From: an uncultured Chloroflexia bacterium
GTDB lineage: Bacteria; Chloroflexota; Dehalococcoidia; SZUA-161
Direction of reading: 5' to 3'
Assembly: GCA_963847595.1 (NCBI GenBank)
Contig: CAWKAJ010000002.1
Coordinates: 77,068 to 141,067 of the forward strand
DNA length: 64,000 bases
In this document: piece after piece, positions 50,414 to 52,237 of the stretch
Layout of the letters: every line of letters begins with the position of its first letter
Position numbering within the stretch: position 1 is the stretch's first letter
The notes under the pieces: generated by a model
What the model was told of the DNA's origin: nothing
Databases searched by the model: none
What the model saw: the letters and a program-made list of their open reading frames with translations, nothing else
Position numbers and translations under genes: made by a program

Positions 50414-52237
50414 ATGTTGACATGGCTAAAGCGCGAGTTTAATATTATTAAGATGTTCTGGCAGCAAATCTTCTCATCTTTGAGTGTATGGGCCGATGCA
50501 GTTGCTCTCCGATGCAACGCCTTGGCGCAGAAGCTTCCTAGATTACCCAGCAGATGGACTCTGCTGCTTTCTATTATTGTATTGGCGGCAGTCGCTTGCT
50601 TATTACGCAGTGTACATTTGTTTAATACCAGCTATGACTATCTTATAAGCCCCGATTCCCACTTCTTTCACTGGTTAGCGGGCAGGGTCATGGCAGGCCA
50701 GGGGCCTCCGCCTGATTCTACACCTAATGGCCTATCTACCTACAGCCTGCACAGCGGATTGGCTTATCCTCTAGTCTATATTGCCAAAGCTATAAGCTCG
50801 GTTATGGGCATATCATCCGCGGACGCTCTGGCTTTGGCAGGTAAGGCTCTGCCGCTGGTCATAGCAGTCATAAGCATGGTCTTGATATATCTAGTTGCTG
50901 CTAGAATCTACGACCGCCGTGTGGGACTGCTCTCTGCCGTGGCCTGGGTGTTCATGAGCTATCCTATTTACGTCGGGAGCGCGGGCTATCTTGACCGCGA
51001 CGGGCTGAGCATGCTGCTGTTCATGGTCGGTGCTTTCCTGTTCTACCTTGCGGGTATATGGCATGTCAAGGTATGGGGCAGGGATGTGGGGTGGCTCATT
51101 GGAGGAGCTGGGGTGCTTGTTGTGGAGGTTTTGCTTTACTTGGAGTGGGATGTCGGGGGCGCGGCGCTCTTGCTGCTAGTTATAGCAGTGTGTTGCATAG
51201 TCAGGTTCCTATTGGGGTATGGCGGCCGAATGGAATCAGAGCCGGATATGAGACGAAGACTCACTGTATCTGTGCGCGATGTCGATTGGCGGCCCTTGGC
51301 TCTCATTGTAGTGGCAAACATATTGGTGGTAGGCTTTTGGGCAGGCTTGAATTTCCACCAGGCTTCTTTCTGGTACAGCACAGCTAAGTGGTTAATTGGA
51401 GCGGGAGGGGCGAGCACTACCCAGGAAGAGCAGGGTTTTTCGCTCGGCAATTTGATTGTCTTTCAGGTGTTCTTGCTACCCATCGTGCTTGCCTTTTACT
51501 TTGGATGGAAAAAGGGTACTCAGAGCATCATCTTTTTCGGCTCGTGGTTCCTCTGTTTGTTGCTTGCCAGCCTGCTTGCCGTGCGTATTCTGCTTTTCGC
51601 TAGCCCGGCGGCCTGCCTGCTCTCCGGTGTGGGGTTGGCTTTCCTCTGGGACTCGATGAAACGGTGGAAATTGCGCAGGTTGAATTGGATTGTCGTGGCT
51701 GTCCTCATCGTCCTGGTGCTCTCCTATTCTGTCAGCTTTGCTCGGGCAGAGCCTTCAGGGTATGGAGTGAGTGCTGATCGTGAATGGCAGGATGCCATGG
51801 CCTACCTTAAGGACGAAACACCTAAGGATTCGATCGTAATGAGCGATTGGGGCTGGGGGTACTGGATACTCGACCTGGGACAACGCAGACCGTTGGTGGA
51901 CAATGGCTATTATGGCTATACCGTAGAAAGTCTGCGCGATGTGGCGCTTGCCTACTACACGACTGATCCCGCAGAGGCAGCCCAGTTGATGAGGAAATAC
52001 GGGGCCAGCTACCTCGTTTTCAGCCAGGATGACCAGCAGGTAGCATCAGTTATCATGGGGTGGGCTAAAGTGGGCGAAGGGCTCACCAGTTTTCCAGGGA
52101 GTTCACTGTTTATGCGGAGCTTCAACGGGGAATTCCAGTCTGGAGGCGGACTCGAAGTCGTGTACCGATCTCCTCCTGAACCTAACTCTTCGTTACCTAA
52201 CGAGCCTGAGGTGGTCATCATCGGTTTGAGCCCCTAG
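50414..52237 (+). CDS. STT3/AglB/PglB-family oligosaccharyltransferase homologue (GT-C) with non-canonical DWGWGY motif
   Basis: The protein has about 13 predicted TM helices. The block DAMAYLKDETPKDSIVMSDWGWGYWILDLGQRRPLVDNGYYGY...KYGASYLVFSQDD aligns to human STT3A [42 protein letters not shown]...ELDVSYVLVIFGG...DD. The N-terminal ISPDSHFFHW...R matches the EL1 DP..NYR motif. Confidence 0.75.
   Translation: MLTWLKREFNIIKMFWQQIFSSLSVWADAVALRCNALAQKLPRLPSRWTLLLSIIVLAAVACLLRSVHLFNTSYDYLISPDSHFFHWLAGRVMAGQGPPPDSTPNGLSTYSLHSGLAYPLVYIAKAISSVMGISSADALALAGKALPLVIAVISMVLIYLVAARIYDRRVGLLSAVAWVFMSYPIYVGSAGYLDRDGLSMLLFMVGAFLFYLAGIWHVKVWGRDVGWLIGGAGVLVVEVLLYLEWDVGGAALLLLVIAVCCIVRFLLGYGGRMESEPDMRRRLTVSVRDVDWRPLALIVVANILVVGFWAGLNFHQASFWYSTAKWLIGAGGASTTQEEQGFSLGNLIVFQVFLLPIVLAFYFGWKKGTQSIIFFGSWFLCLLLASLLAVRILLFASPAACLLSGVGLAFLWDSMKRWKLRRLNWIVVAVLIVLVLSYSVSFARAEPSGYGVSADREWQDAMAYLKDETPKDSIVMSDWGWGYWILDLGQRRPLVDNGYYGYTVESLRDVALAYYTTDPAEAAQLMRKYGASYLVFSQDDQQVASVIMGWAKVGEGLTSFPGSSLFMRSFNGEFQSGGGLEVVYRSPPEPNSSLPNEPEVVIIGLSP

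Follow-up and report, generated by a model that had tools for sequence, protein, structure and literature searches.

An STT3/AglB-type oligosaccharyltransferase homolog of Dehalococcoidia with a replaced WWDYG motif

A 64,000-nucleotide stretch of contig CAWKAJ010000002.1 (here called the window, to which all positions refer) from an uncultured bacterium of the Dehalococcoidia encodes a homolog of the oligosaccharyltransferases (OSTs; GT66) STT3 and AglB in which the motif WWDYG is replaced by DWGWG. What is new, as read from sequence, is a clade-wide and re-conserved replacement of the motif that reads the sequon, its evolutionary polarity, and its covariation with the opposing residue of the same pocket. 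Homology to Stt3 itself is not new, because automatic annotation already labels relatives so: JGI's automatic, COG-based label is “Stt3,” while the single NCBI name listed is “hypothetical protein.” To our knowledge, WWDYG is regarded as a strictly conserved signature of N-OSTs and as one half of the pocket by which the N-x-S/T rule is explained, and we know of no characterized OST that departs from this rule. A full-text literature search found no paper on the variant in OSTs of Dehalococcoidia or Chloroflexota, texts that merely shared terms being left unopened.

Homology, fold and catalytic residues

The mechanically called open reading frame (ORF) spans 50414..52237 (+) and encodes 607 amino acids (aa), whose numbering we use throughout. 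It holds DAMAYLKDETPKDSIVMSDWGWGYWILDLGQRRPLVDNGYY and KYGASYLVFSQDD, exactly as described in an earlier reading made from the letters alone (the sequence-only reading), which had also placed the motif correctly. In a phmmer search of the Protein Data Bank (PDB), residues 457-535 match residues 504-579 of human STT3A without a gap, with ETPKDSIVMSDWGWGYWILDLGQRRPLVDN opposite the STT3A stretch and S-D-W-G-W-G-Y facing S-W-W-D-Y-G-Y; the gap-free alignment to the STT3 region around WWDYGY that the sequence-only reading had proposed is thus confirmed. Two more stretches are collinear with STT3A, one running from transmembrane helix 1 (TM1) and external loop 1 (EL1) to the second DxD, the other being the TM13 helix that bears a conserved Arg. 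The whole protein matches STT3A at an E value of 5e-6, which improves to 2e-20 with the family profile, and by these scores the homology is far beyond chance. Among PDB sequences, the profile of 107 family members matches only STT3A, STT3B, Archaeoglobus fulgidus AglB-L, fungal Stt3, and isolated AglB C-terminal domains, and PglB, DPY19, PMT, and ArnT give no match to it.

The family consists of proteins of 550-620 aa, with 163 matches in a protein search, and all of its named genomic sources are metagenome-assembled genomes (MAGs) of Dehalococcoidia or Chloroflexota. An exhaustive profile search returns 98 clusters at E<=1e-30, rising to 1169 at <=1e-10 and to 4304 at <=1e-3. Two public entries hold the identical protein: P0001, with 585 aa, and P0270, with 607 aa and encoded on a contig of 1.75 Mb.

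The predicted model shows a glycosyltransferase C (GT-C) membrane fold of the STT3 type, with about 13 TM helices and long EL1 and EL5 loops, followed by an AglB-type periplasmic domain, and OSTs rank above ArnT, PMT, and DPY19 as structural matches. The globular domain at the C terminus includes the central-core (CC) unit and matches AglB-S2 over 139 of 153 residues. The sequence-only reading had called 607 aa short for the family, which does not hold, since A. fulgidus AglB-S1 and AglB-S2 are likewise built with the CC unit only.

The two DXD motifs, TIXE/SVSE, and DGGK/DNxT are motifs of OSTs, with DGGK found in PglB and euryarchaeal AglB and DNxT in STT3 (PMC8342417). We located their counterparts through the family-profile alignment to STT3A (Table 1). 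In the 107-sequence alignment, D81, R195, D196, E338, R391, W479, G482, L486, D487, R491, D496, and G498 are invariant. The family consensus at the EL5 motif is x-[V/I/T]-x-E, and this region is the sole stretch of the model with a low predicted local distance difference test (pLDDT) score. At the position of DGGK/DNxTxNx[T/S], D496-N-G-Y carries neither the Lys nor the double sequon. Profile search, fold, and conserved residues together uphold the earlier identification of a bacterial STT3/AglB-type OST homolog that is noncanonical at WWDYG. The outcome against which that identification had been set, a GT-C fold other than that of OSTs or the loss of the EL1/EL5 residues, was not what we found: the STT3 fold is present and the acidic residues of EL1 and EL5 are kept.

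The two halves of the sequon-reading pocket

WWDYG is the substrate-binding motif, contacting the +2 position of the sequon, and its first Trp (W1) and its Asp (D3) help build the pocket for the +2 Ser/Thr in PglB and AglB (PMC3703281, PMC8342417); the label “catalytic” given to it in the sequence-only reading was therefore wrong. Only the second Trp (W2) and the Gly (G5) of the five residues are kept in the window protein, and the full motif is present in 19 of 127 family sequences. Across the 107 aligned sequences, position 478 is most often Q (76), followed by W (11), N (7), E (6), V (3), and D (2), and position 479 is always W; position 480 is mostly S (49) or G (35), then D (12) or T (8), and position 481 is W (77) or Y (21). 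The mechanism previously suggested, an Asp shifted by two positions, fails on these counts: with D478 in only 2 of 107 sequences and Gln in 76, a conserved compensating shift is ruled out. There is a weak tendency for D, E, or N at 478 to accompany G at 480, in a count blind to shared ancestry, and DWGWG arose twice on an approximate neighbor-joining (NJ) tree, each time as a minor variant. Among the 127 family sequences, the pair at 478 and 480 is W,D in 19 and W,G, E,D, and V,D in one each, and the others have neither W1 nor D3. By these pairs, what changed at the level of the family is that W1 and D3 were lost jointly. The crown clade has a consensus of its own at the motif, Q-W-[S/G/T]-W-G-Y.

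The opposite half of the pocket lies on a kinked helix that carries either the DK motif, DxxKxxx(M/I), or the MI motif, MxxIxxx(I/V/W), whose second signature residue makes the +2 Ser/Thr pocket together with W-W-D (PMC3703281). The corresponding segment of the window protein reads D540-Q-Q-V543-A-S-V-I547, in a register taken from the alignment to A. fulgidus AglB-L (AfAglB-L) and the secondary structure of the model, not from superposed coordinates. The family's Y-L-V-F-S-x-L pairs with Y-V-V-S-D-I(612) of AfAglB-L, which aligns D540 with E613, the residue that opens the DK signature (PMC3703281), and the model has a strand at 533-537 followed by a helix at 538-549. Position 540 is D in 103 and E in 4 of the 107 sequences, and position 547 is I in 103 and V in 4. 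The first and third signature residues fit DK, while the second, a hydrophobic residue as in MI, varies without constraint in the variant clade. In a comparison uncorrected for shared ancestry, 13 of 19 WWD members have Ile at position 543 (entropy, 1.36 bits), against V30, I18, F17, Y9, H7, S6, and others in 108 variant members (3.17 bits). From this distribution, the ancestral pocket is of the Ile type, as in PglB, and both halves of the pocket have lost their canonical constraint together.

The closest architecture is that of the minimal archaeal OSTs AglB-S1 and AglB-S2 of A. fulgidus (PDB 3vgp and 3vu0), which have the CC unit only, a conserved WWDYG, and a variant DK pocket of the Lys type (E<>KxxxM/I/P) (PMC3703281). 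The window protein is in contrast bacterial, has DWGWG and D-x-x-V-x-x-x-I without the Lys, and aligns structurally with them at only about 15-20% sequence identity. In sequence it is closest to STT3 and AglB. STT3A and STT3B (PDB 6s7o and 6s7t) are proteins of 700-830 aa within a multisubunit complex and have WWDYG and DxxKxxxM, whereas the window protein, a short one that presumably works by itself, has neither W1 nor D3 nor the Lys. Campylobacter PglB (PDB 3rce, 5ogl, and 6gxc), with no sequence-level match even by family profile, has Met at the first signature position, where the window protein is acidic; its periplasmic domain adds the IS and P1 units (PMC3703281), and its WWDYG is strictly required (PMC3527161). 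The canonical members from Dehalococcoidia (among them P0074, P0085, P0127, L009, L013, and L016) share 30-53% identity and identical catalytic residues with the window protein, but they keep [S/T]WWDYGYWILD and mostly have Ile at the second signature position.

Canonical WWDYG is ancestral and the window motif derived, judging from relatives within and outside the family. Distant Dehalococcoidia relatives (L008, L009, L013, L014, L016, L017, L018, and L023; about 30-40% identity) carry [S/T/A]WWDYGYWILD, and nearly all proteins of 640-940 aa outside the family have WWDYG, typically as ...HWWDYGYW[I/V/T]Q; the five of these larger proteins that were scanned all pass Pfam STT3. In most of the distant Dehalococcoidia relatives, the helix motif E-x-x-I-x-x-x-I follows. 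On the NJ tree, which is midpoint-rooted, canonical enzymes make up the basal lineages, WWDYG and QWSWG occur side by side in an intermediate grade, and the variant motif is found throughout a large crown clade to which the window protein belongs. In the mixed grade, even the close relatives P0089, P0078, and P0079 differ in motif state (WWDYG, VWDYG, or QWSWG).

The gene for canonical P0074 shares its context with the window gene and its counterpart on the syntenic contig L024: a Pur_ac_phosph_N protein upstream, then the OST, an RDD protein, a zinc-dependent alcohol dehydrogenase (Zn-ADH), and orotidine 5'-monophosphate decarboxylase. This argues that the motif changed within one vertically inherited locus, which belongs to a conserved chromosomal backbone (yebC, ruvC, ruvA, gyrA ... 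pyrF). In place of RDD, basal canonical genes have after them a rhomboid protease, or else secreted proteins of the beta-helix and InlB-repeat types; the protease, of the rhomboid intramembrane family, comes directly after the OST in one basal lineage (L009, 7619-8272; L013, 4546-5109; L014, 11859-12446). Tandem OST duplicates occur in L024 (10001-13607), L004 (4688-8139), and L006 (6-3484), both copies being variant (QWSWG or QWGWG), and at that place the window carries only one copy. A three-pattern scan of representative genomes with a variant copy, MAGs that may be incomplete, found no canonical copy in them. L004 (CAYGYN010000008.1) is binned as “Candidatus Woesearchaeota archaeon” and carries a tandem OST-RDD-ADH arrangement of the Dehalococcoidia type, with an ADH 87% identical to that of the window; the contig is probably mis-binned.

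A set of shorter relatives of about 450-515 aa (P0154-P0220; profile E values, 1e-40 to 1e-64) keeps the EL1 Asp, D-R-D, the EL5 Glu, and the conserved Arg and is highly diverse at the WWD position (HWDYG, NWGNG, FGDYG, WWSNG, AWSNG, and others). Two of three scanned had no Pfam match.

Proposed function and its alternatives

We consider the window protein to be, with fair probability, an active single-subunit N-OST of the AglB-S type whose +2 Ser/Thr pocket is re-tuned or weakened. Such an enzyme would transfer a glycan en bloc from a polyprenyl-(pyro)phosphate carrier to the Asn side-chain amide of exported envelope proteins, by the usual metal-dependent mechanism and with EL5 clamping the acceptor peptide. 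W1 and the Asp of WWD are lost together (giving Q/D/N/E-W-S/G/T), the opposing Ile of the [E/D]xxIxxxI helix is no longer constrained, and D-W-G in the window enzyme would still offer one Trp N-H donor and one carboxylate. Retained activity is argued by a replacement consensus that is conserved in its turn, by catalytic residues that are invariant or nearly so across 43-82% identity, by the lack of a canonical copy alongside in the genomes scanned, and by the keeping of variant tandem duplicates. That the +2 requirement is re-tuned or weakened rather than decaying is suggested by the clade having settled on a new conserved consensus. Retained recognition of N-x-S/T would be the most likely outcome, and altered acceptor recognition is plausible.

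The best candidate substrate would be the adjacent exported protein with fn3 repeats, which is rich in N-x-T. It contains 18 N-x-S/T sequons (16 of them N-x-T) against 9 matches to the pattern in reverse and an average of 7.65 in shuffled sequences, and none of 2000 shuffles reaches 18. Orthologs lie upstream of the OST gene in L024, L015, L005, and L025, enriched about 2- to 2.7-fold in L024, L005, and L025 and more weakly in L015 (8 versus 5.5). The ortholog beside a canonical enzyme is equally enriched (10 versus 4.2), and the sequons recur by repeat, so the enrichment is no proof of glycosylation and does not tell the motif classes apart; the statistic would, if anything, fit continued use of N-x-T. 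The sequence-only reading had spoken of adjacent sequon-rich proteins, and this stands for the fn3 protein and weakly for a second neighbor, three others not being enriched. As a test of specificity, sequon statistics were discarded: the observed/expected ratio for exported proteins, 1.71 at variant and 1.13 at canonical loci, comes from a small sample with exported proteins called by a crude hydropathy rule and is driven by the one fn3 family.

Several points weigh against an active N-OST with a re-tuned pocket. Under curated cutoffs the window protein falls short, scoring 18.0 versus 27 bits for Pfam AglB_core-like (PF22627) and 28 bits versus a cutoff of 450 for NCBIfam TIGR04154 (archaeo_STT3), with no match to Pfam STT3 (PF02516); of its canonical relatives, P0127 (STT3 and AglB_core-like) and P0132 (AglB_core-like) clear Pfam. 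PglB loses its activity upon substitutions in WWDYG, W458A/D459A among them, and accepts few residues at the Ile of its MI motif (PMC3527161); because such changes are so damaging, intact function is not to be assumed. The pocket geometry comes from alignment, the contrast at position 543 includes shared ancestry, and the tree is an approximate one with a midpoint root. The fn3 sequons partly recur at equivalent repeat positions, 7 being shared with the L024 ortholog and 5 with that of L015, and their enrichment may be a property of the domain. No glycan-assembly or flippase gene is conserved beside the OST gene in the related loci compared, and the constant RDD and ADH neighbors carry no functional conclusion, because their synteny extends into the housekeeping backbone.

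Changes in both halves of the pocket could also mean an active N-OST with a different sequon rule, in which the +2 hydroxy residue is dispensable or another residue is preferred, so that sites would not be predictable as N-x-S/T. W1 and D3 are replaced along with the opposing residue, position 480 of the window protein is a Gly without a side chain, convergence on a new consensus argues for selection of the new state, and the 450-515-aa relatives vary even more at the motif with their catalytic residues kept. However, Gln, Asn, Asp, or Glu at 478 and Ser or Thr at 480 could still hydrogen-bond the hydroxyl, the adjoining candidate substrate is enriched specifically in N-x-T and equally so beside a canonical enzyme, and the switching of P0089, P0078, and P0079 among WWDYG, VWDYG, and QWSWG suggests near-equivalent function. 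We regard this reading as possible and rather unlikely, and the broader proposal, that the N-OSTs of the crown clade no longer read a +2 hydroxy amino acid and that the 450-515-aa relatives extend this group, as a shade more doubtful still.

It is improbable that the protein has departed from N-glycosylation altogether, as a GT-C enzyme for C-mannosylation (DPY19-like), O-glycosylation (PMT-like), or lipid or polysaccharide modification (ArnT-like), probably with a monophosphate-linked single-sugar donor. A DPY19 identity was rejected, as the protein stays below threshold for Pfam Dpy19 (PF10034; 16.5 bits), DPY19 is missing from the PDB matches of the family profile, and its fold ranks under all OSTs; we saw no counterpart in DPY19 (PDB 7zlg-7zli) of the match to the AglB CC domain. 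An ArnT/PMT-type identity (PMT_2, GT39/GT83) was likewise set aside, since OST folds match better and the profile finds neither. The least probable reading that we weighed is a catalytically compromised relative, either a hydrolase of lipid-linked oligosaccharide (LLO) that frees glycan or a nonenzymatic envelope protein. The inactivation of PglB by WWDYG substitutions (PMC3527161), the LLO hydrolase activity that OSTs possess and that DK-motif residues modulate (PMC8342417), and the lack of conserved glycan-assembly genes alongside would fit it. Against it stand every catalytic and LLO-side residue, invariant or nearly so over about 43-82% identity, a replacement motif that is itself conserved, and retention in a core locus with frequent tandem duplication (L004, L006, and L024) and no canonical copy seen in the same representative genomes.

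An active N-OST with a re-tuned pocket thus remains our preferred reading. A clade that keeps all catalytic residues and replaces the motif, with canonical orthologs in the same locus and close relatives that differ in nothing but motif state, amounts to a natural mutagenesis series on the sequon rule, and the contribution of the WWD and DK/MI pocket to this rule becomes directly testable with natural enzyme pairs. If reading of the +2 position has been lost, Asn would be glycosylated by a sequon rule unlike N-x-S/T, and the 450-515-aa relatives could be a large unexplored group of bacterial OST-like enzymes. The finding also points toward a core role for protein N-glycosylation in the envelope of Dehalococcoidia. 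New site preferences are actively sought by bioprospecting among bacterial OSTs (PMC4894442, PMC12229607), and small single-subunit enzymes (about 590 aa) could be useful for bacterial glycoengineering if their acceptor rule is relaxed.

The gene, its neighbors and the rest of the window

Table 1. Features of the OST homolog and of other genes in the window
Feature	Position	Strand	Remarks
Primase-like protein	36057-38798	-	913 aa; CHC2 zinc ribbon and DNAG_N
Primase-like protein	40752-43277	+	841 aa; Toprim_2
Exported protein, candidate acceptor	44652..46166	-	Three fn3/Pur_ac_phosph_N repeats (Pfam); C-terminal hydrophobic anchor
DUF4352 exported protein	47591..48520	-	Pfam; synteny in L004, L005, L015, L024; 5 sequons vs 2.2 expected
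Second DUF4352-like, lipoprotein-type neighbor	49067..49642	-	Divergent from OST gene; tblastn matches in L004, L005, L015, L024; no sequon
Sigma-70-like promoter	50417..50445	+	TTGACA-17-TAATAT; -10 box ends 7 nt before ATG 50453
OST homolog, probable true coding sequence	50453..52237	+	594 aa, begins MFWQQIF; conserved ATG; promoter inside codons 2-11 of the ORF
D81, EL1 catalytic Asp (first DXD)	50654..50656	+	Context S-P-D-S-[YH]-F-F-H-W; 107/107; opposite STT3A D49
D194-R195-D196, second DXD	50993..51001	+	D 106/107, R 107/107, D 107/107; opposite STT3A D167-N-E169
T335-T-Q-E338, TIXE/SVSE-type EL5 motif	51416..51427	+	E338 107/107; opposite Glu of SVSEH in STT3A
R391, conserved Arg	51584..51586	+	Second-to-last TM helix of model; 107/107; opposite Arg of STT3A VMVRLML
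C-terminal periplasmic globular domain	51761..52234	+	About residues 450-607; CC unit only
S477-D-W-G-W-G-Y483	51842..51862	+	Position of S-W-W-D-Y-G-Y; retains only W479, G482, Y483
D496-N-G-Y499, DGGK/DNxT position	51899..51910	+	D496 and G498 invariant, N497 104/107; opposite STT3A LVDNNT
D540-Q-Q-V543-A-S-V-I547, DK/MI-type kinked-helix motif	52031..52054	+	D-x-x-hydrophobic-x-x-x-I; V543 is the second signature position
RDD-family membrane protein	52317..53156	+	Pfam RDD, E 3e-24; directly after OST in 12 loci, also L025/L026

Translation of the OST most likely starts at 50453, because a promoter lies inside the longer ORF, within its first 13 codons (50414-50455), and the ATG is conserved across four diverged loci. 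The -35 box, the -10 box, and this ATG are all kept in a DNA alignment of the window, L024, L001, and L002, whose OST proteins are mutually only 49-72% identical. We infer from the spacing that the mRNA is leaderless or nearly so. The N-terminal “L-T” that recurs in many database homologs would be the translated -35 box, since the promoter lies in the ORF. Between the OST stop and the RDD start, at 52253-52281, there is another promoter-like site (TTGCCC-17-TATAAT, TG upstream), from which the RDD gene may be transcribed separately.

The RDD protein and Zn-ADH were considered and rejected as functional partners of the OST: the synteny is strong but runs on into gyrA, ruvABC, yebC, and pyrF. 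On the other side of the OST, the gene divergent from it has an ortholog in L024 that is annotated DUF4352. A cluster at 54927-61354, 2.7 kb downstream of the OST, encodes a PA14-domain protein, two methyltransferases, a GT2, and a GT4. It could supply the glycan, but as the glycan-assembly operon it was rejected, being beside the OST gene in no related locus. A 608-aa ORF at 20455-22281 (-), similar in length to the OST, proved to be a histidine kinase with seven TM helices and a PAS domain (7TM-PAS), not a paralog.

The segment at about 32100-44600, which separates gyrA (29614-32040, -) from the fn3 gene, is missing in the syntenic contig L024 and has a G+C content of 0.58-0.60 versus about 0.50. 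With its two primase-like genes, it is probably an integrated mobile element. The window contains no tRNA genes, and a 436-aa ORF at 8414-9724 (-) is without a Pfam match. Three regions at 4985-8330, 16777-19323, and 24388-26046 encode two proteins like the D component of 2-hydroxyacyl-CoA dehydratase, a BcrAD/BadFG-family ATPase that may activate them, two family III CoA-transferases, and a methylmalonyl-CoA mutase, which suggests a pathway of acyl-CoA fermentation or rearrangement.

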